DNA of 64,000 bases from Alphaproteobacteria bacterium (GCA_031426355.1 JANPLD010000068.1:71477-135476), one strand, 5' to 3'; positions 17,244-59,659 are shown, numbered from the stretch's first letter. Program-made: numbers and translations. Notes: a model not told the origin generated them from the letters alone.

Positions 17244-17373
17244 GGTGGATAATCCTTTATGTTGGAATTTGCCGCCCTTTTATTGGATTTCTGCCAATAT
17301 TTCAATAAGAAAGTTGGCCTTGTGAAATAGTGTAATATATGGTATTATTAGTATTATAAATAATATACGTATT

Positions 17374-20728: not shown

Positions 20729-20833
20729 AATTTGACCTATAGCCCTATTATACTCTCTTTAAAGGGGTTGGTCAAATTTATTATATTTCAATGAGTTACT
20801 CAGTTAACGAAGTTTTAATGCTTTTGTGTTAAT

Positions 20834-33124: not shown

Positions 33125-33129
33125 TTAAT

Positions 33130-33188
33130 AGTTTGAAGATTGAAGTTTGAAGAATTTTCTTCCAACTTCCAACTTTAAACTTCCAACT
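33130..33188 (+). repeat. Intercistronic repeat/hairpin element B (TTGAAG / CTTCCAA repeats) between dnaB and the epimerase gene
   Basis: AGTTTGAAGATTGAAGTTTGAAGAA-TTTT-CTTCCAACTTCCAACTTTAAACTTCCAACT. GAAGTTTGAAG (33142..33152) pairs 10/11 with CTTCCAACTTC (33159..33169), with a further imperfect extension. The architecture (TAG stop, tandem-repeat arm, TTTTCT, inverted tandem-repeat arm, ATG) matches elements A and C. Confidence 0.55.
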
Positions 33189-33191
33189 ATA

Positions 33192-34157
33192 ATGAAATAT
33201 ATCATCACAGGCGCGGCGGGATTCATAGGTTTTCACCTTGCGAAAAAACTTCTATCTGAGGGTAATGAGGTAGTTGGTATTGATAATCTTAATGATTATT
33301 ATTCAGTAAAATTAAAAGAAGACAGACTTAAAATTCTCGAAAATAAAAATTTTACTTTCTACAAAGCCGATATTTCTGATTCCAAAGCTATAGATGATAT
33401 ATTTAAAAAACATTCTGATGCAAATTACCTTATTCACTTAGCAGCGCAAGCAGGTGTGAGGTATAGCTTAGAAAACCCAATCGCTTATGCTAACAGCAAT
33501 ATGCTTGGGCAGGTGGTAATTTTTGATGCTGCATTCAGGAATCTGAAAAACATACCTCAGATAGTTTATGCTTCATCAAGTTCAGTTTACGGGCATCAGG
33601 AAAAAACACCATTCAGTGAGCAGGACAGAGTTGATAAACCAGTTTCACTTTACGCGGCAACTAAAAAATCATGTGAGTTAATTGCAGAAAGTTTCGCGGC
33701 AACCCATAATCTGAATTCTACAGGCTTGCGCTTCTTTACTGTTTACGGAGAATATGGACGCCCTGACATGGCTTATTTCAGCTTCAGCGATAATATACTT
33801 TCGGGTAAGCCGATAAAATTATTCAATGACGGTAACCTCCGCCGGGATTTTACTTATGTTGATGATATTATTTCCGGGATAATTTCTGTTACTCACAGAA
33901 CAAAAAAATCTAAACATGAAGTGTTCAATCTTGGAAATAACAAGCCGGTGGAGCTTAAATATTTTGTAGAAGTTCTCGAAAATGCCTTAGGCAAAAAAGC
34001 AGTTATTGAATATCTGCCGATGCAAAAAGGTGATGTTTACCAAACCTATGCGGATATCTCGCTTGCTGAAAAAGAATTCGGATTCAAACCGAAAACTTCG
34101 ATTGAAGAAGGGCTCGGGAAATTCGTGAAATGGTATAAAGAGTATTTTAAGCGTTAA
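33192..34157 (+). CDS. NAD-dependent sugar-nucleotide epimerase (UDP-glucuronate 4-epimerase-like)
   Basis: MKYIITGAAGFIGFHL (Rossmann GxxGxxG), NLNDYYSVKLKEDRL, and the YAATK catalytic YxxxK. ATG 33192 is preferred over the track's TTG at 33147, which lies inside the hairpin element. Confidence 0.88.
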   Translation: MKYIITGAAGFIGFHLAKKLLSEGNEVVGIDNLNDYYSVKLKEDRLKILENKNFTFYKADISDSKAIDDIFKKHSDANYLIHLAAQAGVRYSLENPIAYANSNMLGQVVIFDAAFRNLKNIPQIVYASSSSVYGHQEKTPFSEQDRVDKPVSLYAATKKSCELIAESFAATHNLNSTGLRFFTVYGEYGRPDMAYFSFSDNILSGKPIKLFNDGNLRRDFTYVDDIISGIISVTHRTKKSKHEVFNLGNNKPVELKYFVEVLENALGKKAVIEYLPMQKGDVYQTYADISLAEKEFGFKPKTSIEEGLGKFVKWYKEYFKR

Positions 34158-35286
34158 GGGTTTTAGCTCTTACTGCTAATTTTAAAATTACTGCTCCCCA
34201 GAGACCGGAAAGAACTGAACCGGCGATAACGCCAATTTTTACTTCTTCCTGCAAGGTTGAGCTTGTAAACGCAAGCATGCCTATAAATAAACTCATAGTG
34301 AAACCAACGCCTGCTATTACCGCAACACCATAAATATCTAACCAGCTGGTGCTAGCTGGTTTTGGAGCTATTTTCAGTTTTACCGCTGCTAACGTAAATA
34401 GTAATATTCCGATTTGCTTTCCGAAAAATAAACCAAGTGTAATTCCAATAGTTAAAGGGCTGAACATTTCATCCATTGTTAAACCACCGAAACTTACCCC
34501 GGCGCTTACCAATGCAAAAAGTGGCAATATAAAAAAAGCGACATAGGGATGGAATTTTTTTATTAGTGAATCAAGGGTTTTACCTGAGGGTACGAAAAAA
34601 CCTAATATCACTCCAGCGACAGTTGTATGTATTCCGGAATAATGAAAACTTCCCCATAATATTATGGCGAGTAAAATATGACCTGCGTTAAAAATTTTTT
34701 TCTTATGGAGGAAATATAAAACCCCGACAGTTAAACCTGCAATAAAAAATGGCAGTGGCTGCACACCGCTACTGTAAAAAAATGCGATGATTATTATAGC
34801 GGCGATATCATCATAGATCGCTATCGCAAGCAGAAATATTTTTGCTGACTGCGGAACTGATTTGCCAACTATAGTTAACACACATAATGCAAACGCTATA
34901 TCTGTTGCAGTTGGAATGGCCCAGCCACGGCTATTTTCAGGAGATACGTGGTTTATAATAAGAAATATAATTGCAGGCGTTATTATTCCACCAAAAGCAG
35001 CAATAAGCGGTAATATCTTCTGGCCTTTTTTTGATAAATGACCATCTACCATTTCTTTTTTTAGCTCCATACCAACCACAAAAAAGAAGATCACCATGAG
35101 GATATCTTTTACAAAATCCTGTAGCGAAAATTCAAACTGGCTGAATGAGATATGATAAGAAATTGCAGCTTTATAAAAATCAGATAGAGGAGAATTTGCG
35201 AGCAACATTGCTATTGCTGCAAATACTATCATTACAATTCCACCTGCTGATTCGGTCTGGATGAATTTTTTTAAAAATATTCTCAT
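34147..35286 (-). CDS. nhaA: Na+/H+ antiporter NhaA
   Basis: MRIFLKKFIQTESAGGIVMIVFAAIAMLLANSPL matches the NhaA N-terminus, and the AIYDDIAAIIIIAFFY motif is present. Start 35286 is preferred over the track's 35385, which would overlap rlmH. Confidence 0.9.
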   Translation of the reverse strand: MRIFLKKFIQTESAGGIVMIVFAAIAMLLANSPLSDFYKAAISYHISFSQFEFSLQDFVKDILMVIFFFVVGMELKKEMVDGHLSKKGQKILPLIAAFGGIITPAIIFLIINHVSPENSRGWAIPTATDIAFALCVLTIVGKSVPQSAKIFLLAIAIYDDIAAIIIIAFFYSSGVQPLPFFIAGLTVGVLYFLHKKKIFNAGHILLAIILWGSFHYSGIHTTVAGVILGFFVPSGKTLDSLIKKFHPYVAFFILPLFALVSAGVSFGGLTMDEMFSPLTIGITLGLFFGKQIGILLFTLAAVKLKIAPKPASTSWLDIYGVAVIAGVGFTMSLFIGMLAFTSSTLQEEVKIGVIAGSVLSGLWGAVILKLAVRAKTLNA

Positions 35287-35361
35287 TTGTATATTTCTGG
35301 TAAAACCTGTTTGTGCATTTATAGTGTTTATAGCATTCAATAAAATTAAACCAGCGAAGCT

Positions 35362-35787
35362 GTGAAAGTTAAAATCTATTATCATTCGTTAGATAAAAAA
35401 GAAGTGGTAAATGAACTGATAGAAGTTTACCTGAAACGCTGTCCATGGAAATTCGAGTTTGAGAATTATCAGGGGAAGAAATACCAGAACGCCATAATTG
35501 AGGAAGTTAAAGGCAAATATTTCACTATTGCACTGACTGAGAATGGTAAAGAATATACCAGTGAAGCATTCACAAAATATATGCAAGGGCTTTCAGCAAA
35601 TCATGGCAGCAGGATAGCATTTGTTTTGGGACCCGCAGAGGGCTTTGATAAAAATGACATCCTTAAGGCCAATGCAACACTTTCGCTAGGAAAAATGACA
35701 TATCCGCATAATTTGGCTCGGTTATTGCTTGTTGAACAAATGTACCGTAGCTGGACTATTTTAGAGAATAAGCCCTATCACAAATAG
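35362..35787 (+). CDS. rlmH: 23S rRNA (pseudouridine1915-N3)-methyltransferase RlmH
   Basis: 141 aa with a GTG start. IAFVLGPAEGF...LSLGKMTYPHNLARLLLVEQMYRSWTI is the SPOUT/RlmH C-terminal signature. Confidence 0.88.
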   Translation: MKVKIYYHSLDKKEVVNELIEVYLKRCPWKFEFENYQGKKYQNAIIEEVKGKYFTIALTENGKEYTSEAFTKYMQGLSANHGSRIAFVLGPAEGFDKNDILKANATLSLGKMTYPHNLARLLLVEQMYRSWTILENKPYHK

Positions 35788-35852
35788 GTTTTGATTGATA
35801 GCAGGCCAATGATAGAGAATAATCCAGCTAAGGTAAGGGCGTAATAGCCTGA

Positions 35853-35882
35853 TTAAGGCCAGGCTTAACAACCTGGCCTTAA
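35853..35882. other. Perfect 11-bp-stem GC-rich hairpin/palindrome upstream of flgB
   Basis: TTAAGGCCAGG (35853..35863), an 8-nt loop, then CCTGGCCTTAA (35872..35882). No U-tract on either strand. It lies 22 nt upstream of the flgB ATG. Confidence 0.5.
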
Positions 35883-35903
35883 GATATAATCCCAAGTCAT
35901 TTT

Positions 35904-36293
35904 ATGGACTTAAGTAAAATTACATCCTTTGCGCTTCTTGAAGAGAAGATGAAATATAATGCCGACAGGCAGCAGGTTATCGCTGAGAATTTCGCTAATG
36001 TGGATACGCCGGGATATAAGAGGAAAGATATTGAGAAGCCTGATTTTGCTAATATTTTTAATGAAAAGCTTTCAGCACTTACTCCGGCGCAGACAAATTC
36101 GAAGCATATTGGCGCGGTTGATGATGATTCGATAAATGGCAGAAAGGTCATAACTTCCGAAGATAAAGTTCAACTTGATATGGAAGCGTTGGAAATGATG
36201 CAGAACAGCACATCTTATTCAGAGGCTAACGCAACTTATAAAAAGATGCTTTCCCTTGTAAGGGTTGCAATAGAAGGAAGCGGAGCGAGATAA
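35904..36293 (+). CDS. flgB: Flagellar basal-body rod protein FlgB
   Basis: …RQQVIAENFANVDTPGYKRKDI… is the rod-protein N-terminal motif. First gene of a flgB-flgC-fliE cluster. Confidence 0.85.
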   Translation: MDLSKITSFALLEEKMKYNADRQQVIAENFANVDTPGYKRKDIEKPDFANIFNEKLSALTPAQTNSKHIGAVDDDSINGRKVITSEDKVQLDMEALEMMQNSTSYSEANATYKKMLSLVRVAIEGSGAR

Positions 36294-36763
36294 TGAAAGA
36301 ACTTGTTTACATATTTTTATTTATAATTTGCGTGCCTTCGGTTTCAGAGGCGGCGGGCGGTCTTAAAAAAGCCCTGACAAGTTCGGCCTCTGCAATGAAA
36401 GCGCAGTCTGAAAGGATACGTGTCATCACTGAGAATATCGCCAACTCTGATACAACAGGTCTTACTGAAACTGAGGAGCCTTATAGAAGGAAGACCGTAT
36501 ATTTTGAGAATGTCAAAGATGATGAGACCGGCGCAAATGTAGTAAAAGTAAAAAAGATTGCCCGAGATGATAGTGAGTTCAAACTTATTTACCGCCCTGA
36601 TCACCCTGCGGCTAACGCAGATGGGTATGTTCGCTTCCCAAATGTTGACAGGAACCTTGAAAACATTGATATTCGTGAAGCGCAAAGAAGTTACGAAGCT
36701 AATGTTACAGCAATTGAAGTAACTAAACAGATGATGGAAAGATCACTAGATTTAATGAGATAA
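36293..36763 (+). CDS. flgC: Flagellar basal-body rod protein FlgC (with unusual hydrophobic N-terminal extension)
   Basis: SASAMKAQSERIRVITENIANSDTTG and the C-terminal DGYVRFPNVDRNLENIDIREAQRSYEANVTAIEVTKQMMERSLDL are FlgC signatures. There is a 1-nt TAATG overlap with flgB. Confidence 0.88.
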   Translation: MKELVYIFLFIICVPSVSEAAGGLKKALTSSASAMKAQSERIRVITENIANSDTTGLTETEEPYRRKTVYFENVKDDETGANVVKVKKIARDDSEFKLIYRPDHPAANADGYVRFPNVDRNLENIDIREAQRSYEANVTAIEVTKQMMERSLDLMR

Positions 36764-37090
36764 ATGACAAAAAGAAAAGTTATGACCAGTTTAAATATGT
36801 TAGATGCAGTTTCTGCCTATAATAAAACTTCCTCTCTTGACGGGAAAGGTTTTGGCGTATCACAGGCACCTTCCAGCGATTTTACCTCTCTGGTGGAAAA
36901 AGCACTTAGTGATACTAAAGATAAGTTAGATATTGCGGAAACCTCAACAGCTGGCTCAGTAAAAGGTGATATCAGCCTTGAAGACCTTGCAATAGCAGTT
37001 GCCAATGCGGAAGTAAGCCTCAAGACCTTAGTTTCCATTCGTGATAAACTTGTCAGCGCATTGCAGGATATTCTAAGGATGCCTATTTAG
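36764..37090 (+). CDS. fliE: Flagellar hook-basal body complex protein FliE
   Basis: 108 aa. The C-terminal …AIAVANAEVSLKTLVSIRDKLVSALQDILRMPI matches the FliE C-terminus (…vRnK…AYqeImrMqv). Position after flgC. Confidence 0.8.
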   Translation: MTKRKVMTSLNMLDAVSAYNKTSSLDGKGFGVSQAPSSDFTSLVEKALSDTKDKLDIAETSTAGSVKGDISLEDLAIAVANAEVSLKTLVSIRDKLVSALQDILRMPI

Positions 37091-37127
37091 GTTGATGGTT
37101 GATAGTTCATAGTTTATTGAAAATATC

Positions 37128-38126
37128 ATGACTATCAGAAAATACAAAATCGGCACAAGGAAAAGTAAACTTGCACTCGCGCAGACTGAAGAAGTTATTG
37201 CGGAGATAAAAAAGTCGATCCCTGATTTTGTATATGAGATAGTTTCCATAAATACTAAAGGTGATCAGGTTCATCACAAGCCTTTGCGTGAATTATTTGA
37301 AGGTGGTAAAAGCGCTTTTACCAGTGAATTACAGCAGGCATTGAAAGAAAAGGAAATTGATATTGCTGTGCATTCCATGAAAGATGTTGCAGGTAATGTC
37401 AGAGAAGAAACCCTTACTTTTGGGGCGTTCCTTAAAAGAAGGTCAGCCAGCGATGTTTTTATCAGCCGGAATTTTATACAGAATATAGAATCATTACCGC
37501 AGGGTTTTATAGTTGGTACAGTTTCTCTCCGCCGCAAAGCAGCTTTGCTTAAACTGAATAATAAAGTGAAGGTAAGGAATCTGCGTGGAAGCATCCAGAC
37601 GAGAATTGCAAAACTTCGCCATGAATTTATTTGGGATGATCACCCACCCATTCTATATGACGGAATAGTAATGGCAGAGGCGGCACTTGAACGTAGTGAT
37701 AAAAACCTGACGAAAGATTTATACATCCTAAAAATATCCGAGAGCAAAATGGTTCCCGCGGCGTGCCAAGGAACTATAGGTGTTGAGTGCAGGAAAGATG
37801 ATCATGAAACTTACAGGTTATTAAGAAAAATAAACCACGTGGAAACAGAGGAAGTAAGTTTATCTGAAAGGGATTTTTTATATATGATCGGCGGAAATTG
37901 CCATACTTCAGTTGGCGTTTATTGTTATGAGAAAGATAAAGGTTTTGAAATGAGCGCAGAAATATCTGATGAAAAAGGTAAAATAATTCTTGATGAAATA
38001 TTGCAATGCGAAATGCCTGATATATCCAGCCTTCCAAAAAAACTTGCTGCTAAAATAATAGAAAAAGCTCAAGATAAGCTTGGTGAAAATTATAAAGAGA
38101 TATTAAATATAGAACCAAGAATATAA
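37128..38126 (+). CDS. hemC: Hydroxymethylbilane synthase (porphobilinogen deaminase)
   Basis: IGTRKSKLALAQTEEV...INTKGD...FTSELQQALKEKEIDIAVHSMKDV and the cofactor-binding region PAACQGTIGVE. Confidence 0.93.
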   Translation: MTIRKYKIGTRKSKLALAQTEEVIAEIKKSIPDFVYEIVSINTKGDQVHHKPLRELFEGGKSAFTSELQQALKEKEIDIAVHSMKDVAGNVREETLTFGAFLKRRSASDVFISRNFIQNIESLPQGFIVGTVSLRRKAALLKLNNKVKVRNLRGSIQTRIAKLRHEFIWDDHPPILYDGIVMAEAALERSDKNLTKDLYILKISESKMVPAACQGTIGVECRKDDHETYRLLRKINHVETEEVSLSERDFLYMIGGNCHTSVGVYCYEKDKGFEMSAEISDEKGKIILDEILQCEMPDISSLPKKLAAKIIEKAQDKLGENYKEILNIEPRI

Positions 38127-38153
38127 AACCGGACTGAGAACGGAAATAAAAAA

Positions 38154-38169
38154 GGAGCTAAAAAGCTCC
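38154..38169. terminator. Bidirectional intrinsic terminator between hemC (+) and rpmJ (-)
   Basis: GGAGCT-AAAA-AGCTCC. An A-run precedes it (a U-run for the minus-strand rpmJ transcript) and T-rich CTTTATAAAATCTTT follows it (for hemC). Confidence 0.65.
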
Positions 38170-38207
38170 CTTTATAAAATCTTTAAGAAATAAAATTACG
38201 GCCCGGA

Positions 38208-38333
38208 TTAACCTTGGCGAGCTTTCATTTTAGGGTTTTTCTTATTGATAACATAAATCCTGCCTTTTCTACGAACTACTCTGCAGTTCTTATCTCTTGC
38301 TTTAGCAGATTTGAGTGAGCTTACAACTTTCAT
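38208..38333 (-). CDS. rpmJ: 50S ribosomal protein L36
   Basis: Not in the ORF track (41 aa). The minus strand reads ATG AAA GTT GTA AGC TCA CTC AAA ..., giving [41 protein letters not shown]. This is the alphaproteobacterial-type L36 sequence. Confidence 0.9.
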
Positions 38334-38439
38334 AACCTTGAGTTTTATTAGTTTTGAAGGGGCTTTCTATACAAAACTATCACTGTAGTCAACCAAATAC
38401 CCTGCAAATTCACAATTATTTATATGTTTCAAAAGGTTA

Positions 38440-40821
38440 TCATAATAAAACCTCTGTAATTGCCACCTCCCCCCGCCCGACTTTATCAGACATCTGGTAT
38501 ATTCTGGCGGTAAAGTTAGTTGCTAGAGAACCAAAGTCAGAACTCTGCATACCTTCAGTATAATTAAAACTTGGAGAGGTTATTTTCTCAGTCCTTTTTA
38601 AAGTAGAAGCATCGAAAATGTCTATTTCATATTCTTCCTTAGTTTCAAAAACAGGGATCTCTACACTTGAAGAAAAAGAGATATTACCGCGTGATCTTCT
38701 CAGCCATTGTATATTGATGTCATCATCCATTTCCCTTTCGGCAGAAATATGGACAGGTGAATATGGCTTTAATGAATTTCCAGAAAAGTTAATTTCTTTT
38801 GCGGTAACATCATCTGCACTTTTACCAAAGGTTACAGCTTTTATCCAGATAGTTTGGCCGATCTGTGAAACAGGCATCTCTATCTTTAAAACATTCTCAT
38901 CAAGCAGGATGAACCTGCTGCCTGCAGGATGAGTTTCACCTGCGTAATTTTCTGTACCCTGACGGCCGCGATATAAGTGGCTAAGCGTATATTTATTTAA
39001 TTCTGTCTGGTTGATATTTTTAAACTGAAAATTTTCATTTCCTATCAAAGCTAAATTTCCAAATGATTGTAGATTATCTTCTGTTAGTGATTCTAAAGTT
39101 CCACCGATCAAATTTATATTCAGCTGATTAATTTTATCAATAACAGGGGAGCTGAATTGTAACAGTTCAGTTTCAATAACTCCCATTGTTGCAGGGGAAA
39201 CAATATCAGTTATTTTCTGAAAACCTTCTGTTGCGGAAATATTGCTTACATATATTGCGCAACCATTCCAGTTAGAAGAAGTACCGCAGACAGCCAGATG
39301 CAGATATGCTTTATCTATTGAAGTTTCATTTGGCAAATGATGTGTATCAATTATCTCAAAATAAGTATCGGAGATAGGTTCCAGATTTTCACTGTTATAA
39401 TCAGTCGTAAGTTCCTCATTGGCGGAAGAATAAAAATCATTTTCAAATCTTATTGCAGATATTTTTATCTTGCCTTGCTGCGTGAGTGAGGAAATTATTT
39501 TCAGCTTATAGGTCTCATCATTTTTAATGATGTTCACTATATCGCCTGCTTCAATATATAAATATTCAGATGGCAGTGAGAATTCTATCTTCTGAGTTAT
39601 TGCTTCCTCTTCAAGAAGTAAAGTTTGTGCTATTTTTTCAGCATATGATCTGTTCAATAATAATGGCAGATTAATCTCAATACCGGATGAATTATTTTTA
39701 TCTTCGCGCGAGATGTCAAAATTTCCGACAAGGTAATTATTATTTTCCGATATATAATTAAGGCTGAGGTTTGAAGTAATATTCAGGCTAGATGCATTTT
39801 CAAACAGCATGGTCTCATTATTCTTTTCGAAAATTAATCTGCTAAAATCTATATTTATTTCTTCAGTGTTTTCACTCTGCCTTGGGAAGAATTTCACTTT
39901 ATCACTTTCAACAAAATCAAAAAAGTAACCTGATTGTAATGTTCGCAGGGCTTCTAAAGCTGTGATAGCACCCGAGAGATTATATCCGCTGACAAGTTTA
40001 TTAACATTATTTATTTCTGGAGTTTCAATACCGGCTTTTTTGCAGAGGTCAGAAATTATATTCTTAAGTTCAGCTACCCCTAATTTTCCATTTATCCAAT
40101 GGCCGCGGCTCCATAAATTTCCATCACCCCAGACATTTTTCATATCAGGGTAAAATGGATAGGACCTCGCATCATAAGCCCAAATAAATTTCTGCTCCAC
40201 CATTTCAGAATTCTGCCATTTTGCCAAGGTTCCCTGAAGCGCCGTTCTTTGCGCCAGAAAATCAATATATCCTTTGGATAAATATGGCAGGTTGCCATCA
40301 ACTGAATCAGGATTATAAAAAACATTTGGCTGATTGGCGCAGCCATCAACTGAAGGAAAACCAAACTCAGTGAACCATATTTTTTTACTTTGTGGTACAA
40401 ACTCTGTTTGTTCTGAATCAGGATTTGTATGAGTATTATTCCACCAATATTCAATATTTTTCCAAGCATCTTGAGGTGTTAAATCTGCTTTTACAGTGCG
40501 TTCTTCATCAGTGTAATACCAGTCATAACCTTCACCATTTTCCCAGCCGTCTATAATTTCTTGCTTATCGTATATTCCATTCTGCTCCCTGTCAGTGAGT
40601 GGGAAATATGCATCGATACCGATGAAATCTATATTGTCTGATGCCCATAGAGGATCCATATTATACCAGCCATTTGTGGAATGGTATTCACTCCAATCCG
40701 CTGCGTAACCTATTTTGGTTTCAGACCCCATTATTGTTTTAACTTCCTCTACAAGGGCTATCAGTTCGTCCACTGCCGAGAAACTATCATCAGCATCCTG
40801 AATTTGTGTCAGGCCTTTCAT
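38440..40821 (-). CDS. GTA host-specificity/tail-fibre protein (RcGTA g15-like), C-terminal fragment; the frame is actually open up to the frameshift at 40910..40915
   Basis: The 793-aa ORF begins inside the conserved …VDAFIIGSEMKGLTQI…TKIGYAADWSEY… TIM-barrel-like region of g15-type proteins. Upstream in the same frame, FFTKTNGYNNFILHYADLVKDKVDAFIIGSE is also readable. Confidence 0.8.
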   Translation of the reverse strand: MKGLTQIQDADDSFSAVDELIALVEEVKTIMGSETKIGYAADWSEYHSTNGWYNMDPLWASDNIDFIGIDAYFPLTDREQNGIYDKQEIIDGWENGEGYDWYYTDEERTVKADLTPQDAWKNIEYWWNNTHTNPDSEQTEFVPQSKKIWFTEFGFPSVDGCANQPNVFYNPDSVDGNLPYLSKGYIDFLAQRTALQGTLAKWQNSEMVEQKFIWAYDARSYPFYPDMKNVWGDGNLWSRGHWINGKLGVAELKNIISDLCKKAGIETPEINNVNKLVSGYNLSGAITALEALRTLQSGYFFDFVESDKVKFFPRQSENTEEINIDFSRLIFEKNNETMLFENASSLNITSNLSLNYISENNNYLVGNFDISREDKNNSSGIEINLPLLLNRSYAEKIAQTLLLEEEAITQKIEFSLPSEYLYIEAGDIVNIIKNDETYKLKIISSLTQQGKIKISAIRFENDFYSSANEELTTDYNSENLEPISDTYFEIIDTHHLPNETSIDKAYLHLAVCGTSSNWNGCAIYVSNISATEGFQKITDIVSPATMGVIETELLQFSSPVIDKINQLNINLIGGTLESLTEDNLQSFGNLALIGNENFQFKNINQTELNKYTLSHLYRGRQGTENYAGETHPAGSRFILLDENVLKIEMPVSQIGQTIWIKAVTFGKSADDVTAKEINFSGNSLKPYSPVHISAEREMDDDINIQWLRRSRGNISFSSSVEIPVFETKEEYEIDIFDASTLKRTEKITSPSFNYTEGMQSSDFGSLATNFTARIYQMSDKVGRGEVAITEVLL

Positions 40822-40856
40822 TTCTGAGCCGATGATAAATGCATCTACCTTATCTT

Positions 40857-42146
40857 TTACCAGATCAGCATAATGAAGAATAAAATTATTATACCCGTTG
40901 GTTTTAGTGAAAAAATATGAACTTCAGATGAATCGCAGGTTATATATCCGCGCCATGGCTTATCTATAATATCCATAAAAATCATCGGATAGAATTTTAC
41001 TTTTAGTCCTCTGTTTGTTGCTTCTTCTATAAATCTTAAAATACTTTCATCACTTGGTGTGCCGCCATAAATAGGGCGTTCATCTGCGTAAGTTACCAGC
41101 GCTGCAGTGTCGCGGTTATATCCAGCAACATGCCATTCAGTGGGAAAAGTTTTCGTCTGGGTTTTATATTCTACGCGTGGCGCAACAGTGCAAACATTTG
41201 CATCAAGTGAATTGCCAAACCAGCAGCAAACCAGACTTACATATTCAATATTTGGGAAATTATTTTGTAAATTATCCAAGGCAACTAATGCATCTGCTTT
41301 ACCGCTGGCATTATTCTGATTGATAAATTTTTCTTCACCGGTCTGGTGCCAGATACCTAAAATTTCCACCCCATCTTTTTTACTATGGGTTAAAGTATCA
41401 TAAACAAATTCGCCGCTTCCCGGTATAATATTCACTGCGGTAACATTATTTTCTAGATTGTTTTCATCTCCTGATATTTTTAAATTGCGGATTATCTCAA
41501 AAGTGAAATTCGGTATTCTGCCCCTAAATTCAGTTAGTTCAAAATCTTCAAAAACTATATAGGCAAGGCCACGATATGCAGGGGTTTTATTTTCACCTTC
41601 ATAAGATTCTATTACAGGGTCTGGAAGTTGGGTTTCATCCCCTTTATAGATACTGTAAGAAGCGCAGTAATCATTGGGATTGATCAGATTTGAATCTGCC
41701 CAGACACGGTCGACATAGTCAATTTCACCTTCGCATAATGCAATGGCGATATTTACGAAATAACGGAAATTAGTTTCGGTTTTCCTTTCTACTTTCGCGC
41801 TGCTGCCTTTACCGCCCTGATTGACAGGTGCTCTTTCTTCGACGATCCTGACATTGGTTGACCAGACGATATTACCGGCTATCCTTGTTTTGCCGTAAAT
41901 TATAGGGATCGCGTCACCATAAGAAGATTTCTGTATTGAGAAATCAGTTAGTTTTTTTCCTCGGATTATATTCTTTTCATTCTCACCGAAAAGGTTTGAA
42001 TCAATTGAATTGCCGAGCCTTGTGGCTCCGGCATTAAGCCCTTCTTTAACCTGACCCTCAACAATATTACCGAATACCGGGATCTGCGAAAGACCAAATG
42101 ATTCTACAAAACTATTTGATGCACTTGTTAATACTGTTGTTGTCAT
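40857..42146 (-). CDS. GTA host-specificity/tail-fibre protein (RcGTA g15-like), N-terminal fragment
   Basis: …YGKTRIAGNIVW…FRYFVNIAIALCEGEIDYVDRVWADSNLI…YKGDETQLPDPVIESYEG…PAYRGLAYIVFEDFELTEFRGRIPNFTFEI… matches the conserved N-terminus of alphaproteobacterial GTA g15 proteins. The last 30 or so residues are out-of-frame nonsense. Confidence 0.8.
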   Translation of the reverse strand: MTTTVLTSASNSFVESFGLSQIPVFGNIVEGQVKEGLNAGATRLGNSIDSNLFGENEKNIIRGKKLTDFSIQKSSYGDAIPIIYGKTRIAGNIVWSTNVRIVEERAPVNQGGKGSSAKVERKTETNFRYFVNIAIALCEGEIDYVDRVWADSNLINPNDYCASYSIYKGDETQLPDPVIESYEGENKTPAYRGLAYIVFEDFELTEFRGRIPNFTFEIIRNLKISGDENNLENNVTAVNIIPGSGEFVYDTLTHSKKDGVEILGIWHQTGEEKFINQNNASGKADALVALDNLQNNFPNIEYVSLVCCWFGNSLDANVCTVAPRVEYKTQTKTFPTEWHVAGYNRDTAALVTYADERPIYGGTPSDESILRFIEEATNRGLKVKFYPMIFMDIIDKPWRGYITCDSSEVHIFSLKPTGIIILFFIMLIW

Positions 42147-42158
42147 AACTTCATTAAT

Positions 42159-42584
42159 TTAGTTTTTGATTCTATAAATTTTTACTATCTTTGATCTCCA
42201 CACATCATTAAGGCGATGTTTCACCGCTTTGCCAATCTGGCTGTAACAGTGAATGAGTGCTAGGTTTTCATTATTATATTTCGTGATGAAGCCAGTATGC
42301 TGAGGGAATTTTCCGAACTTCATCAGAAATATATCACCTTCTTGCATCTTATTTTTTTCAATTGAAAGAAGCGAAGCTTCCATTTTTTCCTGCAGTAAAA
42401 ATGTTGAGGGGATACGGGAATATCCTGCTTCATCATTTTGCGTGAGGTCAACTTCGCAATTTTTCAGGACAGTTAGTACAAACCCTATGCAATCAACACC
42501 TATAGCAATATTCCTGCCTTGATGGACAAAGGGAACTCCGATCAGTTTTTCAGCTTCTGAGATTATTTTATTTTGTAAATCCAT
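42159..42584 (-). CDS. NlpC/P60-family cell-wall peptidase (RcGTA g14-like)
   Basis: 141 aa. …GVPFVHQGRNIAIGVDCIGFVL… provides the catalytic Cys context, followed by …HTGFI…LIHCY. Position between the g13- and g15-like genes. Confidence 0.8.
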   Translation of the reverse strand: MDLQNKIISEAEKLIGVPFVHQGRNIAIGVDCIGFVLTVLKNCEVDLTQNDEAGYSRIPSTFLLQEKMEASLLSIEKNKMQEGDIFLMKFGKFPQHTGFITKYNNENLALIHCYSQIGKAVKHRLNDVWRSKIVKIYRIKN

Positions 42585-42586
42585 AT

Positions 42587-43414
42587 CTATACTTTTAATA
42601 TCCTGTCTGTTCCCGGGATATGAGGTTCCCCACGAAAATTAATTATGTTGTCGAATTTGGAGATACAGGTTTGTGAATTTTTATCGCAGCCTACAGAGAC
42701 CTGATATTCATCACCTGTTTCAATATCTTTTATAAGAGAAGTAAGAAGTTTGAATTTGCCTTCTGTGAAATTTGCGATCTCTCTTATAGAACCAGAGTTC
42801 GCGCCGCTTAAGAATGTAATCACCCCTTTTGAGAAATAATTTTTCTCTTCAGTTCGCGCGGTATCAATGAATTCCATTTTATTTATTGTGAATGTAACTG
42901 CTCCTGAGAATGTATGGTCAGCAATATTTATTCCGCATTTGCTATCGCCAAATTTTGCTCTGCAATTAGGTGAGAAATTCTGTGATATTCTGTTTTTAAG
43001 TAATGAAGAATATCCTGATATCTCAATAAATAATTTATCGTCATCATATCTTATTTTTGAAATAAAACCTTTTTTGAGAATTAATTTCCCATCTTCAGGA
43101 GATTCATAATTCAGTAAAAATATTTCTATATCGGCAGAATCTAATTTACTTGATTCAACTTCAGTTTTTGAGATGATATCATCTTCAATAACACTTAAGA
43201 TACTTTCTTTTTTATTAACTGAAAACCCTGAATAATCAGCAAAGATATCAGATGACAGATAAGGTTTATAAATATTGCCGTCATATTGGAATTCCTTATC
43301 GAAACTGGTTAAGGCGATCACTGATCCATCCTTACAGGTAATAAGAATGAATTTTGCTAAGGTTGTTACTTCTTTTGCAAGATGCCCTTTTAAATTTTCG
43401 GAAATGTTTTTCAT
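42587..43414 (-). CDS. DUF2163 / BR0599-type phage protein (RcGTA g13-like hub protein)
   Basis: 275 aa. Contains …TLAKFILITCKDGSVIALTSFDKEFQYDGNIYKP… and the C-terminal CDKNSQTCISKFDNIINFRGEPHIPG motif typical of this family. Confidence 0.78.
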   Translation of the reverse strand: MKNISENLKGHLAKEVTTLAKFILITCKDGSVIALTSFDKEFQYDGNIYKPYLSSDIFADYSGFSVNKKESILSVIEDDIISKTEVESSKLDSADIEIFLLNYESPEDGKLILKKGFISKIRYDDDKLFIEISGYSSLLKNRISQNFSPNCRAKFGDSKCGINIADHTFSGAVTFTINKMEFIDTARTEEKNYFSKGVITFLSGANSGSIREIANFTEGKFKLLTSLIKDIETGDEYQVSVGCDKNSQTCISKFDNIINFRGEPHIPGTDRILKV

Positions 43415-44013
43415 ATTTTTACCTCTATCAATTCAATTTTTGACATTGAAGCTTTGGAGAAATTTTCTGTTGAGTATGAAAGGATATCTGAGTTGAAACG
43501 CGCCGGAACATCGAATTCGAAATCTGCTTTTACCACCACAGAATTTGCAGGAGGACTTGAAAAAGTAATAACTCCATTATTATTCCCGAGGGAAAATCCC
43601 GAAGCCTGCTTAATATTATCAAGATAGACCTATATGCTCTGCGGCACCGGTTTCGTAATTTTTCTCTCAATCTCATAAATCTCATCTCCGTATTTTTTAA
43701 TAAGCTGGAATTGTGTTTTTAAATTATTGCCTGTTCCGAGTATTTGGCCTTTCGCCTGAAAATCTGCCCAGTCTTTGAAGCGGAAGCCATAGGCCATACC
43801 CCGGCGTGCGATAAAGAAATCGCGGATCTTTTCTGCCTGAGCGGTAGAAATATTTTTGAAATCGATCTCATATTTCGCGCGAGGGATTGAATTATTTATA
43901 TTCCGCTTCTCGTGGCCGCTCGTCATTAAATTAACGGAAGTTGAGAATTCCTGACCACCTTGCGCTTTAAAAGAAATATCTGCGGGGAACCTTGCTTCGT
44001 GAAAATCTGTCAT
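43411..44013 (-). pseudogene. DUF2460 protein (RcGTA g12-like) interrupted by an in-frame TAG at 43630..43632
   Basis: The track ORF 43630..44013 (FHEARFPADISF…GGQEF…SGHEKRN…RRGMAYGFRFKDWADF…KPVPQSI*) stops at TAG. The same frame continues for 72 codons (VYLDN…GVITFSSPPANSVVVKADFEFDVPARFNSDIL…) to a TGA that overlaps the g13-like ATG. Together this is about 200 aa, the normal length of the family. Confidence 0.8.
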
Positions 44014-44109
44014 TGGGAATCTCCTATAAAATTATTCTGCGATAGAGATTATAAACTTCCTTTGATGCCGGATTTATATCGGCCTTGCCCCTATTCTCAA
44101 AACGATAGG

Positions 44110-44577
44110 CTATCTGGTAAAAAGCGCCGTTTTGATGATCTGTGGAACATTATCTGCTTCCTCACCATATCCGGCAAAGTAATCTATGTAGATAAACTTT
44201 GCAGAAGGAAGAACATCAAAAAAGAGGAAATATTTTGCCGGAGAAAGATAATAATTCGAAGCAGAAAATGCTGTTTCATCACCATTTTTATCTATCAATT
44301 TTACCGAGTCGATAGAACTTACCGGACCCATCGGCAAATCAACTTCCATTTCAGTTGAACTGCAATATGCAAGGCGCCATTTCTGTGTGATGAGAGAAGC
44401 CTTCATATATTTTTCAGCTTCGATACGAGCTGATTTTATAAGATCCTCAATAGTACTATTTTCTGCATCGCCGCTGATGCGTAAGAATTCCTTTACTTCA
44501 TCTGCTGTTACCGGTTCAATTTCCGGTTCAGTTAATTTTATCAATTCCGGTTTCCTGCTTTTAAAAATTCCGAACAT
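44110..44577 (-). CDS. gp6-type head-tail connector/adaptor (RcGTA g6-like), C-terminus displaced by a frameshift
   Basis: …PVTADEVKEFLRISGDAENSTIEDLIKSARIEAEKYMKASLITQKW… is the gp6-like N-terminal signature. The expected C-terminal …YRFENRGKADINPASKEVYNLYRRIIL* is readable in the -1 frame down to TAG 44024..44026. Confidence 0.75.
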   Translation of the reverse strand: MFGIFKSRKPELIKLTEPEIEPVTADEVKEFLRISGDAENSTIEDLIKSARIEAEKYMKASLITQKWRLAYCSSTEMEVDLPMGPVSSIDSVKLIDKNGDETAFSASNYYLSPAKYFLFFDVLPSAKFIYIDYFAGYGEEADNVPQIIKTALFTR

Positions 44578-44657
44578 GATGCTCCTTTATTTGTATGTTT
44601 AAAATCCTTCTATTTTTAAGATTATGTGCGAAAAAATATGTGCGGAAGGGTGAAAAT

Positions 44658-44694
44658 TCATGTGCCACACCATGAATAAGCATGGCACATGAAG
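44658..44694 (-). terminator. Hairpin/terminator immediately downstream of the capsid gene
   Basis: TTCATGTGCC (44658..44667) pairs with GGCACATGAA (44685..44694), with an inner CCATG/CATGG extension. On the minus strand it is followed by TTTTCACCC. Confidence 0.55.
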
Positions 44695-44701
44695 TAAAAA
44701 A

Positions 44702-45904
44702 CTAACTAGCTGCCAGTTTTAATAATTTGATCGCTTCAAAATTAACCACACCACCACCTACACGTTTAGTCGTGTAGAATTTCACGAATGGTTTTTCAGT
44801 GTATGGATCGCGGAGGATGCGGATACCTGTCCTATCAACGATCTGATATGCACGTTTAAAATCTGCAACGGCAACTGAAAGTGAGTTGGTTGCGGGAACC
44901 GGCATATCGGAAGCCTTAACCACTGGAACGCCGAGTAATGTATCAGGCGTTCCTGCTGTTAGGCCGGGCTGCCAGAGATATTGATTCGTAGTTGCTTCTT
45001 TCAGTAAACGAACTGCCTGAACTGTTGCTCTGTTCATCATGAAGGCGTTATTTGCATATTCATCTTTTAAAGCATAATAGAGTTTGATGAGTGAATCGGA
45101 AGTTACCGCGCCTGCTGAAAGTGAGCTGATCTGTTCAATCTGCCCGGCACCGGTTCCTGCGGTATAGGCAAGTATACCTTTTGGTTTGCCCGAACCATTA
45201 CCTGAAACAAAGGCAGTGTTTTCTTTGCGTGAGAAAACTTCCACCAGTTTTTCAGTAAGCCAGCTTTCAATATCAATTGACGAATCATCAATTAATTTTT
45301 GCGTTGCCTTAGGCTGTGCCACAAGCTCATATGCAGTGATAGAAAGCTTGCCGATCTGCGGTGTATCGGAATCAGAAACGGCAGCGGATTCTGAAGATGC
45401 CCAGTCTGCTCCAGCTTCGTCGCTATCTTCTATTATTTCGAAAACGTCAGATGAAAGTTGCGTAACATTTGCAACCTGCCTCATTGGTGAGCTTTCATAG
45501 ATGATGCGTGCAAGCTGCGCGCTCATTTGCGGTGTAACCAGATATCCGCCGTCTGCATCAGTGCCAACTGAAAGGGCTTTCTTCTCGAGGAAAGAAAGAT
45601 CACCTTCAACGCCTTTACGAACGTAATTGATGAAAGCTGCTTTATGTTCGCCTGCAATATTTGATGAAACATCGCTTTTATATTCACCACCAAGTGAGGG
45701 GCGGTTCAGAACTGTCTCAACACCGTCAAGACGGTTCTTGAATTCGTCTATTACATTATTTAATTTGTTAATATGATTTGTTGTTAAAGAATCCGCAGAG
45801 CCTTTTTTCTCTATCTCCTGCAGCCTCCTTTCATTAAGTTTTTTGAAATCATCCCATGCGGAGCCGAGTTCATCAACTTTTCTTGTTATTGTAGAAATAC
45901 TCAT
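44702..45904 (-). CDS. HK97-family major capsid protein (RcGTA g5-like)
   Basis: 400 aa. An N-terminal coiled delta-like region (…VDELGSAWDDFKKLNERRLQEIEKKG…) is followed by the HK97-fold body (…GGYLVTPQMS…, …NQYLWQPGLTAGTPDTLLGVPV…). Confidence 0.9.
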   Translation of the reverse strand: MSISTITRKVDELGSAWDDFKKLNERRLQEIEKKGSADSLTTNHINKLNNVIDEFKNRLDGVETVLNRPSLGGEYKSDVSSNIAGEHKAAFINYVRKGVEGDLSFLEKKALSVGTDADGGYLVTPQMSAQLARIIYESSPMRQVANVTQLSSDVFEIIEDSDEAGADWASSESAAVSDSDTPQIGKLSITAYELVAQPKATQKLIDDSSIDIESWLTEKLVEVFSRKENTAFVSGNGSGKPKGILAYTAGTGAGQIEQISSLSAGAVTSDSLIKLYYALKDEYANNAFMMNRATVQAVRLLKEATTNQYLWQPGLTAGTPDTLLGVPVVKASDMPVPATNSLSVAVADFKRAYQIVDRTGIRILRDPYTEKPFVKFYTTKRVGGGVVNFEAIKLLKLAAS

Positions 45905-45912
45905 AATTTTCC

Positions 45913-46422
45913 TTATTTTAAAATGTTAATTGTCTTGTCCAGTAAGGAGAGAAGCTCTGCTTCAGGCTCATCTGATTTTACACTGAGGATCTTTGCGGAA
46001 TCATTGGCCGGGAAAGTGACCAGACTTATTTCGAATAATTCTGCTTTTTTGATTACGCGAACTTCGGTTTCATCATCAATTTCAAAATCAGTGACCCTGA
46101 AACCAATGCTTAAGCCTTTCAGCGCACCGCTTTTGAGGAGTGCGTAAGCTTCGCGAGCGCGTTCGATCTCAAGTAGAAGCTGGCCTTCAACGTACAGTCC
46201 GTTGTCATCTTCTTCTATGTGAGTAAAAATCCCGATCGGTTCATCTGCGCGGTGTTGCCAGAGTAATTTTATTTCCCCGGCATTTTTGGTCAGATCTGAA
46301 AAAGCACCTTCCAGAATTATATCATCGTGATTATCTATAACGCCGAATACGCTGGCGTAACCTGAGAAAAAACCCTTTTTATTAAGAGATTTTATCTCAA
46401 GGGAATAATTATAATTTTGCAT
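45913..46422 (-). CDS. HK97-family prohead protease (RcGTA g4-like)
   Basis: 169 aa. GYASVFGVIDNHDDIILEGAF…LWQHR…PIG…LSIGF…EISLVTFPAN matches the S78/U35 prohead protease pattern. Confidence 0.88.
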   Translation of the reverse strand: MQNYNYSLEIKSLNKKGFFSGYASVFGVIDNHDDIILEGAFSDLTKNAGEIKLLWQHRADEPIGIFTHIEEDDNGLYVEGQLLLEIERAREAYALLKSGALKGLSIGFRVTDFEIDDETEVRVIKKAELFEISLVTFPANDSAKILSVKSDEPEAELLSLLDKTINILK

Positions 46423-47710: not shown

Positions 47711-50359
47711 ATGCCGCCAAAAACACTTTCATCAATCCGCACTGCATTTCTGGATTTTTTCAAATCCAAGGGGCATTTTATTGCGCCTTCATCGCCGCTT
47801 ATCCCGCATAGTGACCCGACTTTGATGTTCACTAATGCAGGTATGGTGCAGTTTAAGAATGTATTTGCCGGGCGTGAGGAAATTAAAGATAAGCAAGGCA
47901 AAGTTACACATAGAGTTGCAACATCACAAAAATGTGTTCGTGCCGGTGGAAAACATAATGACCTTGAGAATGTAGGTTATACTACGCGTCACCATACATT
48001 TTTTGAAATGCTAGGTAATTTTAGTTTTGGAGATTATTTTAAAGAAGATGCGATCTCTTATGCATGGGAATTCCTGACAAAAACATTGGCACTTCCTAAA
48101 GATAAATTATGTGTAACTGTTTATCATACGGATGATGAGGCTTTTAATCTTTGGAAGAAAATCGCTAACTTACCTGATGAAAAAATAATACGCATAGCTT
48201 CTGATGATAATTTCTGGGCAATGGCTGATACCGGTCCGTGCGGGCCGTGCAGTGAGATATTCTTTGATCACGGCCCACAAGTTGCAGGCGGCCCGCCAGG
48301 TTCACCTGAACAGGATGGTGACAGGTTCGTTGAGATATGGAACCTTGTATTTATGCAATACGAGAAGTTAGAGAACGGTGAGCGTACAAACCTCCCAAAA
48401 CCATGTATTGATACTGGTATGGGCTTGGAGAGATTGACTACGGTTCTGCAAGGTGTTCACGACAATTATCAAACGGATATTTTTGTAAGATTAATTGAAG
48501 CAAGTAAAAATATTTCAGGGCAGAATAAGCCTGAATTTGATAATTCCCACAGGATAATCTCTGACCATTTACGTTCCACATGCTTCCTGATCGCCGATGG
48601 AGTACTGCCTTCAAATGAAGGTCGAGGATATGTTCTCCGCCGTATAATGCGACGCGCCATGAGGCACTGCCATCGCTTAAGCCCTAATAAAATTATGATG
48701 CACCGTTTAGTTCCAGCATTACTTGCTGAAATGAGCGAAGCGTATCCTGAGCTTGAACGCGCAAGAGCCTTAATTATACAAACGATTGAAAATGAGGAAG
48801 AAAGATTCAGGGAAACTTTGGGCAATGGTTTAAAGGTCCTTGAAAATGAATCGAAGCATTTAAAGAATAAAACCCTTTCAGGCGAAATTGCTTTCAAACT
48901 TTATGATACTTATGGGTTTCCAATAGATCTTACGCAGGATATCCTCAAAGAAAGAGGGATAAAAGTTGATGAAGCTGGTTTTAACGCAGCATTAGGAAAA
49001 CAGAAAGAAAAAGCCCGGGCTAATTGGACAGGAAGTGGTGAAGCTGCGACTGAAACATTATGGCTAGAACTTGCAAAGGAACTGGAGGAAACAGAATTCT
49101 TAGGATATACTAATACAAACTCATCAGGTGATGTAATTGCCATTATTGCGAGTGGTGCAAAACAGAATAAATTATCAGAAGGTGAAGGCGCGATAATCAC
49201 CAACCAGACACCTTTCTATGCGGAATCTGGTGGTCAGGCTGGCGATAGGGGTTTCATCAAAAACGATAAAGGTGTTTTTGAAGTTCATGATACTAAAAAA
49301 TTCAGCGGTTCATTATTTGTACATTTCGGAAAAATGATTTCCGGTGAAATCAAAATGCATGACATTGCCAAACTTGAAGTTAATGAGAATCGCAGGGCAA
49401 GGGTACGCAAGAACCATTCTGCTACCCATATACTTCATGCGGTGTTGAGGAAAAACCTTGGCGACCATGTAACACAAAAAGGCTCACTGGTTGAGGAAGA
49501 TTATCTACGTTTTGATTTTTCAAACCCTAAAGCTGTTACTGATGAAGAGATCAGAAAGATAGAATTTGAAGTTAACAAAATAATTTCTCAAAATACTTTG
49601 GTGAATACCAAGATCATGAATATTGACCAGGCCTTAGAATCAGGAGCTATGGCATTATTCGGCGAGAAATATTCTGATGAGGTTCGCGTACTTTCTATGG
49701 GTGATAGTTACTCAGTAGAGCTTTGCGGCGGAATACATGTTGAACGCACCGGAGATATCGGAACCTTCCGTATCACTAAGGAGTCCGGCGTTGCATCAGG
49801 TGTCAGAAGGATAGAAGCTGTAACCGACCAGAAAGCATTGGAATTTGTTTTCAGCAAGGAAGATAAATTAAACAATATAATGGAGATAACCAAATCTTCA
49901 GAAAATGATGTTGTTGAGAAATTGGAAAAGCTTCTTCTTGAGAGAAAAGAGCTGGAAAAGCAGGTTTCTGAACTTAAGAAGAAAGCTGCTCTTGGCGGAA
50001 ATTCAGGCTCTAGTAATAATAATGAAGAAGTGGAAGTAATAAATGGAACGAAGTTCCTTGCTAAAAAACTTGATGGCGTTGATGCGAAAGACCTGCGCGG
50101 TATTGTTGACGAAATAAAAACCAAACACACTTCATGTGTAGTATTTTTGGTTGCGGAGAATAAAGGCAAGGTTTCAGTTCTGGCGGGTGTTACCAATGAC
50201 CTTACAAATAAAATATCTGCCGTTGATATAGTTAAGAAATCCGTTGAGATAATGGGCGGCAAAGGCGGTGGCGGGCGCCCGGATTTTGCCCAAGGCGGCG
50301 CTCCTGATAGCAATAATTACGAGAAAGCTATTGTAGAGATTAAAAAACTAATTATATAA
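47711..50359 (+). CDS. alaS: Alanine--tRNA ligase
   Basis: 882 aa. Contains FTNAGMVQFKNVF, RHHTFFEMLGNFSFGDYFK, the editing-domain HSATHILH, and CGGIHV. Confidence 0.97.
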   Translation: MPPKTLSSIRTAFLDFFKSKGHFIAPSSPLIPHSDPTLMFTNAGMVQFKNVFAGREEIKDKQGKVTHRVATSQKCVRAGGKHNDLENVGYTTRHHTFFEMLGNFSFGDYFKEDAISYAWEFLTKTLALPKDKLCVTVYHTDDEAFNLWKKIANLPDEKIIRIASDDNFWAMADTGPCGPCSEIFFDHGPQVAGGPPGSPEQDGDRFVEIWNLVFMQYEKLENGERTNLPKPCIDTGMGLERLTTVLQGVHDNYQTDIFVRLIEASKNISGQNKPEFDNSHRIISDHLRSTCFLIADGVLPSNEGRGYVLRRIMRRAMRHCHRLSPNKIMMHRLVPALLAEMSEAYPELERARALIIQTIENEEERFRETLGNGLKVLENESKHLKNKTLSGEIAFKLYDTYGFPIDLTQDILKERGIKVDEAGFNAALGKQKEKARANWTGSGEAATETLWLELAKELEETEFLGYTNTNSSGDVIAIIASGAKQNKLSEGEGAIITNQTPFYAESGGQAGDRGFIKNDKGVFEVHDTKKFSGSLFVHFGKMISGEIKMHDIAKLEVNENRRARVRKNHSATHILHAVLRKNLGDHVTQKGSLVEEDYLRFDFSNPKAVTDEEIRKIEFEVNKIISQNTLVNTKIMNIDQALESGAMALFGEKYSDEVRVLSMGDSYSVELCGGIHVERTGDIGTFRITKESGVASGVRRIEAVTDQKALEFVFSKEDKLNNIMEITKSSENDVVEKLEKLLLERKELEKQVSELKKKAALGGNSGSSNNNEEVEVINGTKFLAKKLDGVDAKDLRGIVDEIKTKHTSCVVFLVAENKGKVSVLAGVTNDLTNKISAVDIVKKSVEIMGGKGGGGRPDFAQGGAPDSNNYEKAIVEIKKLII

Positions 50360-59573: not shown

Positions 59574-59659
59574 TTTTTGATTTCCAGAAAATATAGACAA
59601 AAATCTGTTATTGTTATAGTTAATAGTATTAAAGTTTATTGTTGAAGAATTGAATAGTA

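Follow-up and report, generated by a model that had tools for sequence, protein, structure and literature searches.

Gene g15 of an RcGTA-type gene transfer agent (GTA), a phage-like particle that has been domesticated, encodes the megatron baseplate protein and is split into two open reading frames (ORFs) at a run of six thymines in the genome of an uncultured alphaproteobacterium. The gene lies on the minus strand of a stretch of 64,000 nucleotides (GCA_031426355.1, JANPLD010000068.1:71477-135476), here referred to as the window, and all coordinates are counted from the first letter of this stretch. With good confidence, the split can be ascribed to a recent pseudogenisation of the neck and tail genes of the GTA, and thus to ordinary decay rather than to a recoding signal. 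The lesion is absent from all relatives compared, is present in a contig assembled independently from raw reads, and is accompanied by lesions in two other genes of the locus, g6 and g12, while the genes surrounding the locus are intact. Decay is the coherent explanation because of these two further lesions, both of which were missed in the sequence-only reading that first noticed the split.

In the course of events proposed here, slippage during replication would have dropped one T from an ancestral run of seven, changing ATT TTT TTC to ATT TTT TC. This loss would put everything past residue 412 out of frame, and translation would end 17 codons on. The frameshift would represent one step in a recent and still ongoing decay affecting the GTA's neck and tail part, during which g3, g4, g5, g13 and g14 have been kept intact. 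The event in g15 is probably recent, as each half of the gene is still without further stops. The mutation has presumably become fixed in the population, and a full-length megatron is presumably no longer made.

A megatron gene divided between two frames

The T6 run occupies positions 40915..40910 on the minus strand, corresponding to A6 on the plus strand, and the reading across it is ...TGC GAT TCA TCT GAA GTT CAT ATT TTT TCA CTA AAA.... After ...EVHIF, the 429-aa ORF ends in a tail of 17 out-of-frame residues, SLKPTGIIILFFIMLIW. The sequence-only reading had correctly described an upstream frame running into nonsense residues and a stop at 40857, and its estimate of about 30 such residues has been shortened accordingly. 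It had further described a -1 frame opening from a TGA just before the T-run, and this TGA is indeed located at 40926..40924; from 40923, the frame begins SSYFFTKTNGYNNFILHYADLVKDKVDAFIIGSEMKGLTQI... and continues to 38440. The first ATG of this downstream frame, at 40821, gives rise to an ORF of 793 aa (38440..40821, minus strand) and is located 36 nt past the upstream stop, and no obvious Shine-Dalgarno-like sequence was seen upstream of this ATG on inspection of the sequence. Inserting one T in the T6 run leads to a single ORF of 1235 codons and restores ...EVHIFFTKTNGYNNFILHYADL....

The translation of the repaired gene matches the NCBIfam equivalog NF048004 (GTA_megatron, 'baseplate multidomain protein megatron') with 1093.5 bits, the cutoff being 800, and the match spans residues 1-1231 of the protein and positions 1-1297 of the 1299 in the model. 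Using Pfam, the repaired protein was found to comprise a GH113-like match (362-618), GTA_TIM (PF13547, 418-667), Phage-tail_3 (PF13550, 729-884) and Rcc01698_C (PF23666, 986-1080). The domains are consequently ordered as expected for a GTA megatron, i.e., a TIM-barrel-like domain followed by Phage-tail_3 and Rcc01698_C. The end-to-end match to NF048004 upholds the earlier proposal that one g15-type gene is divided between the 429-aa and 793-aa ORFs, and by their alignment the two halves represent, far beyond chance, collinear parts of one family member. The gene is accordingly the RcGTA-type g15 'megatron' of an uncultured alphaproteobacterium. The name under which it was first described, a host-specificity or receptor-binding protein, is an older lambda-J-style label for a family now named megatron baseplate protein. 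A GTA megatron is expected to be encoded by one uninterrupted ORF, whereas the gene in the window is split at the T6 run, and the break after residue 412 falls inside the GH113-like match, in the TIM-barrel-like region. Judged by its sequence, the g15 locus appears to be a pseudogene of the megatron family and not a functional member of it.

Absence of the frameshift from relatives

A protein search yielded 4785 hits from 5.8 billion protein clusters, and the best 120 of these, with a median length of 1226 aa, were compared. Among them, 118 are full-length proteins of 1188-1266 aa, while the shorter ones are the 793-aa fragment of the window itself (P0002) and one protein of 1109 aa. Apart from the window's own fragment, no split homologue was present among these best 120 hits, and no intact allele of the window species was present among the protein-search hits. 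The nearest relatives among the hits are all intact, including P0003 (61% identity) as well as P0004 and P0005 (both 56%), and the nearest of all, P0001 (71% identity, 1235 aa), is without the frameshift. The nearest named relatives are metagenome-assembled genomes (MAGs), as in the case of P0004, which carries the label 'MAG: Rickettsiales bacterium'. In addition, when contigs were scanned with the 429-aa fragment, the sole match was to a distant locus of Lutimaribacter, with 41% identity across 175 residues.

In the alignment of the 119 full-length homologues, the junction is represented by 12 ungapped columns for 12 residues. The junction motif FFTKTNGY, in which the two Phe are residues F412 and F413, is nearly invariant in these homologues, with F found in 118, F in 119, T in 113, K in 107, T in 94, N in 82, G in 119 and Y in 113. 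At the codon level, the window reads ATT TTT T-C, while the junction in five orthologue loci reads AAT TTC TTC, AAT TTC TTT, AGT TTT TTT or GAT TTT TTC, with no gap. Here, the tract is TTC TTC in L002 and TTC TTT in L003 and L004, and L005 displays an intact T7 run. The suggestion that an extra T restores a conserved continuation thereby finds support, as the junction is gap-free and all five loci are single-frame. In the comparison with orthologues, put forward earlier as a check, the frameshift is carried by none of the 119 full-length homologues and none of the five loci. Since the junction is ungapped and single-frame in all 119 full-length homologues, the frameshift is private to the window genome. 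The simplest history compatible with these alignments would be the deletion of a single T from an ancestral ATT TTT TTC.

Two further lesions in the GTA locus

The broken g15 is accompanied by a broken head-tail connector gene, g6, and a broken distal tail protein gene, g12 (Table 1). The g6 ORF (44110..44577, minus strand) encodes 155 aa, and adding one T extends it to 184 aa with a TAG stop at 44026..44024. Once repaired, g6 encodes a protein that can be aligned over its full length with the 185-aa orthologue encoded by L006, the only gap being of one residue and close to the N terminus; the alignment around the break reads ...IKTALFYQIAYRFENRGKADINPASKEVYNLYRRIIL and includes ...IKTAL.YQIAYRFENRG.... 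The g12 ORF (43630..44013, minus strand) ends after 127 aa, and its frame runs on for 72 codons to a TGA at 43413..43411. When read through, the 200 residues of g12 align end to end with the 201-aa orthologue of L006, the TAG being located opposite a Lys. A reassignment of TAG was considered as an explanation of this stop and rejected, as TAG ends 18 of the 53 genes for which stop usage was determined (TAA 31, TAG 18, TGA 4), including gyrB, ppdK, glyS, dnaB and recA, in all of which the model alignments extend to the model end. The TAG in g12 is thus a true nonsense mutation, and a substitution of this kind cannot be a homopolymer error.

The remaining GTA genes identified in the window are intact. 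In L006, the order is g4-g5-g6-g12-g13-g14-g15, adjoining recA, as in the window, so that the arrangement is ancestral to the lineage, and g12, g13 and g14 precede g15 in both L002 and L006. The g3 portal gene forms a separate mini-locus on the opposite strand, ~4.6 kb from g4, from which it is separated by recA, alaS and a 167-aa ORF without a known family. Pfam and NCBIfam scans of the 64-kb window did not find g1, g2 (terminase) or g7-g11, including the tail tube and tape measure genes. A functional GTA would be expected to encode a complete and intact set of structural genes and to form particles that carry DNA, and with g6, g12 and g15 all broken, the set read from the window falls short of completeness.

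Table 1. Coordinates of the GTA genes in the window and of the elements of the split g15 gene.
Feature	Position	Strand	Description
g15 / megatron baseplate gene, putative pseudogene	38440..42146	-	1235 codons after restoring one T
Upstream fragment ORF of g15	40857..42146	-	429 aa: 412 native residues, 17 out-of-frame, TAA 40859..40857
Downstream frame of g15	38440..40923	-	-1 relative to the upstream frame; preceded by TGA 40926..40924
T6 run, inferred site of 1-nt deletion	40910..40915	-	Probable ancestral T7: ATT TTT TTC
g14 NlpC/P60 cell-wall peptidase	42159..42584	-	Intact, 141 aa; Pfam NLPC_P60, TIGR02219; orthologues 139-143 aa
g13 baseplate hub	42587..43414	-	Intact, 275 aa; TIGR02218 at 181.6 bits; orthologues 275-276 aa
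g12 distal tail protein (DUF2460, TIGR02217)	43411..44013	-	Broken; in-frame TAG 43632..43630
g6 head-tail connector	44024..44577	-	Broken; 1-nt deletion in T-run 44123..44119 (T5, inferred T6)
g5 HK97-type major capsid protein	44702..45904	-	Intact, 400 aa; TIGR01554 at 359 bits, residues 9-396, model 7-384/385
g4 prohead protease	45913..46422	-	Intact, 169 aa; TIGR01543 at 130.5 bits
g3 HK97-type portal	51056..52258	+	Intact, 400 aa; TIGR01537 at 227.6 bits, model 4-338 of 343

Presence of the lesion in the reads and integrity of the surrounding genes

The alternative that survives best is a homopolymer error of sequencing or consensus, according to which the real genome would have T7 and one intact g15 ORF. 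Such an error would fit a lesion that consists of a 1-nt change in homopolymer length within an otherwise perfectly open gene, and also a source that is apparently metagenome-derived, with the fragments found on one 176,893-bp contig only. However, the lesion is also present in the Logan contig SRR20217183_648449 (17,314 bp), a de Bruijn-graph assembly made independently from raw reads, which was reached by an exact match of the 275-aa hub protein, whereas exact searches with the 429-aa and 793-aa fragments and with GyrB gave no record. The Logan contig is 100.000% identical to window positions 45913..32587 over 13,327 bp, the same fragments of 155, 127, 429 and 793 aa are called on it, and both g15 fragments are recorded from NCBI as well as Logan. 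Because this independent assembly is identical, the lesion lies in the reads and was not made by an assembler or polisher.

The genes outside the GTA loci also speak against an error. Split genes were surveyed by a mechanical two-frame overlap scan, NCBIfam coverage of ~50 ORFs and six-frame reading of the larger gaps between genes, and ~45 non-GTA genes of the window look intact, those matched in NCBIfam covering their model essentially end to end. The intact genes include nuoG-K, gyrB, recF, galU, ppdK, glyS, panD, nrdB, ileS, rpsF, rpsR and rplI, as well as dnaB, nhaA, flgB, flgC, fliE, hemC, recA, alaS, valS, pgsA, ribD and nrdR. Apparent N-terminal truncations of glyA and rlmH were both rejected, as the former runs off the end of the window and the latter has a normal GTG start. 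The non-GTA genes hold 374 homopolymers of at least 5 bases, of which 30 are at least 7 bases long, including one A9 and three T8, and all 374 are in frame. In the GTA genes, 2 of 71 runs of at least 5 bases are broken. If errors depended on length, the A9 and T8 runs would fail before T6 and T5. The A9 run, at the extreme 5' end of dnaB (31604..31612, plus strand), is the longest coding homopolymer in the window and provides an internal control against homopolymer error. The probability that both indels would fall in GTA genes is ~0.025, and it is ~0.004, by length, that all three lesions would do so, the GTA-derived genes making up 15% of the coding sequence. Finally, the g12 lesion is a substitution to TAG and involves no change in a homopolymer. 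Taken with the identical raw-read assembly, these observations make a sequencing error an unlikely source of the split.

Rates of replacement and observations opposing decay

A relative-rate test was performed on amino acids, with L002 as the sister lineage and L003, L005 and L006 as outgroups; amino acids were used instead of the ratio of nonsynonymous to synonymous rates (dN/dS), as synonymous sites are expected to be saturated at 71% amino-acid identity. Downstream of the frameshift, the window lineage has accumulated more replacements than L002, with 85 vs 49 using L003 (p = 0.002), 81 vs 58 using L005 (p = 0.05) and 78 vs 56 using L006 (p = 0.06). The still-translated N-terminal 411 residues display no excess (32 vs 37, 29 vs 29 and 28 vs 33), while g13 (28 vs 16) and g14 (10 vs 5) follow the same trend as the downstream segment. 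The pattern is only suggestive of relaxed constraint on the segment downstream of the frameshift.

Some observations weigh against decay as the explanation. The rate acceleration is modest, significant with one of the three outgroups, and without a genome-wide control for lineage rate. The single indel aside, g15 is fully open in each of its halves (412 + 823 codons), which would fit a sequencing error, rescue by slippage or a very recent event as well. The NCBI and Logan assemblies may derive from common reads, a point in favour of a sequencing error. In addition, the g6 and g15 frameshifts are alike in that one T is missing from a T-run and a -1 slip of tRNA-Phe would correct it, and a recoding model would predict the loss of one T in both T-runs equally.

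Phase variation, recoding and fission

The sequence-only reading had proposed three origins of the split, namely a slipped-strand deletion leading to either pseudogenisation or phase variation, ribosomal slippage, and a sequencing error. A slipped-strand deletion in the form of pseudogenisation is retained here, while phase variation and ribosomal slippage are, like the sequencing error, disfavoured.

Phase variation would imply that mispairing of slipped strands at the T-run switches the baseplate protein ON and OFF, and that the OFF state is the one that was sequenced. It would be in line with a frameshift located in a homopolymer that a single-base change could reverse, and with a second GTA gene, g6, being broken alike. 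Contingency loci generally have long tracts, typically of at least 8 bases, and usually near the 5' end of the gene. The tracts here are T6/T7 and T5/T6, however, and the one in g15 is located mid-gene, at codon 412 of 1235. Moreover, the tract is unconserved, being interrupted in L002 (TTC TTC) and in L003 and L004 (TTC TTT), both assemblies are single-path, and slippage in a tract cannot switch the nonsense codon of g12. Overall, reversible switching is considered distinctly unlikely.

Recoding would allow a full-length megatron to be produced from the split gene, if tRNA-Phe slipped by -1 on U UUU at the ribosome or a U were inserted during transcription. Such events might be programmed, or might amount to a low-level rescue of the kind described for frameshifted genes in Blochmannia and Buchnera. 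Slipping in the P site from one UUU to the UUU that overlaps it would yield exactly ...HIFFTKT..., and the g6 lesion is open to a similar correction. Transcriptional insertions are known to happen in A/T runs (PMC5574713), and frameshifted genes of endosymbionts can be rescued in this way (PMC3017870). Yet, the frequency of insertion grows exponentially as the run gets longer (PMC5574713), and the example tract described in Blochmannia comprises 11 adenines (PMC3017870), so a T6 run should yield little. The zero-frame codons CAU AUU UUU UCA do not contain an X XXY YYZ heptamer, leaving the single-tRNA slip on U UUU as the sole option, and the 120 nt downstream show no stimulatory structure, as their minimum free energy of -21.5 kcal/mol is close to the shuffle mean of -19.9 (z = -0.49), with pseudoknots being outside the model. 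A programmed -1 frameshift would be expected to show conservation, a zero-frame heptamer and a downstream hairpin, and none of these was found, the shift being seen in 0 of 119 homologues and 0 of 5 loci. Besides, g12 would need read-through of its TAG. Recoding of the locus is consequently given very little weight. It could also be speculated that the T-run frameshifts in g15 and g6 are tolerated, with low-level slippage or U insertion supplying small amounts of full-length neck and baseplate proteins and thus a throttled GTA, in the way proposed for essential genes with frameshifts in Blochmannia and Buchnera. This would likewise demand some TAG read-through in g12, and the chance that the GTA is maintained in such a form appears very small.

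Finally, functional fission, in which the 429-aa ORF, the 793-aa ORF or both would be expressed as separate working proteins, is scarcely credible: both pieces are long and open, the downstream ATG follows closely on the upstream stop and replacements have not sped up in the N-terminal part (32 vs 37), but the break falls inside one domain (GH113-like 362-618; GTA_TIM 418-667), residues 413-442, including the invariant FTKTNGY motif, would be lost, no Shine-Dalgarno-like sequence precedes the ATG at 40821, none of the best 120 hits is a split homologue, and the C-terminal part changes faster.

Other features of the window

A 443-aa ORF (13166..14497, minus strand) resembles VirD4/TraG-type coupling proteins of type IV secretion, and its match is confined to 141-478 of the 657 positions in the VirD4 model and to 43-374 of 468 in Pfam T4SS-DNA_transf. 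The ORF, which may represent a remnant or a truncated gene, holds one T8 and three T7 runs and apparently lacks the N-terminal membrane part. Between ppdK and glyS, a pair of short ORFs that overlap each other (~88 and ~92 codons; 17244..17841, plus strand) would, judged by eye, encode a putative antitoxin of CopG/RelB type and a putative toxin of RelE/ParE type. At the thresholds used, neither Pfam nor NCBIfam gave a match for eight ORFs of 119-308 aa, which may encode lineage-specific proteins to which no family is assigned. The unmatched ORFs are located in 5838..7499 (plus strand), 10179..10637 (plus strand), 20369..21604, 50352..50855 (minus strand), 58869..59795 (minus strand) and 61707..62150 (plus strand). 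No tRNA genes were found in the 64-kb window, nor any Rfam families at the gathering threshold.

Comparison with known systems

Recent decay of the neck and tail genes being the preferred explanation, the window provides a clean early snapshot of a GTA from which the neck and tail module is being lost, with intact head genes. Its importance is limited, as comparative data had previously led to the inference of such a process in Rickettsiales and Holosporaceae (PMC9254644), and the instance is new while the kind is known. For annotation, the two ORFs of g15 should be merged into one megatron pseudogene, g6 and g12 should be flagged as pseudogenes, and the locus should be counted neither as a functional GTA nor as a candidate recoding site.

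The repaired gene resembles ORFg15 of RcGTA, encoding the megatron Rcc01698, in its length class (1235 aa, compared to a model of 1299 positions) and domain order, and it likewise follows g12 (distal tail), g13 (hub) and g14 (NlpC/P60 peptidase). Unlike g15 of RcGTA, its frame is broken at codon 412, apparently by a 1-nt deletion, and the nearest intact relative is 71% identical. The locus also differs from the RcGTA cluster in missing g7-g11, leaving g6 abutting g12, an arrangement found in the relative L006 as well.

The tail assembly chaperone frameshift of the lambda G/GT type is similarly a -1 shift within a phage-derived tail cluster. The chaperone frameshift shows conservation among phages, occurs at a canonical slippery heptamer and is located between the major tail and tape-measure genes. 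In contrast, the shift in the window is found in g15, lacks both a heptamer and a structure, and is absent from all homologues examined.

The frameshifts described in Blochmannia and Buchnera (PMC3017870, PMC5574713) are likewise single-base indels in an A/T homopolymer of an otherwise intact gene in a low-GC genome (~38% GC here). However, the tract in the window is T6 and not the 11 adenines of the literature example, and while the Blochmannia and Buchnera frameshifts persist across strains or species, such conservation is not seen for the shift in g15. Furthermore, the genes rescued in these endosymbionts are essential, whereas those affected here are dispensable and derived from a mobile element.

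The locus also resembles the reduced GTA gene sets of Rickettsiales and Holosporaceae, which keep the GTA head and portal genes while the tail genes have been lost, have become pseudogenes or evolve under relaxed selection (George et al. 2022, PMC9254644). The same division into retained head and decaying tail is seen in the window, where g3-g5 (portal, protease and capsid) have no lesion, g6, g12 and g15 each carry one, and g7-g11 are absent from the locus. The loci are likewise dispersed, the portal being separated by ~4.6 kb and encoded on the other strand. Yet, the window differs from these reduced sets in that the decay is seen early, each broken gene having a single lesion in an otherwise open frame, and in having close relatives, L002 and L006, that still encode intact tail genes.

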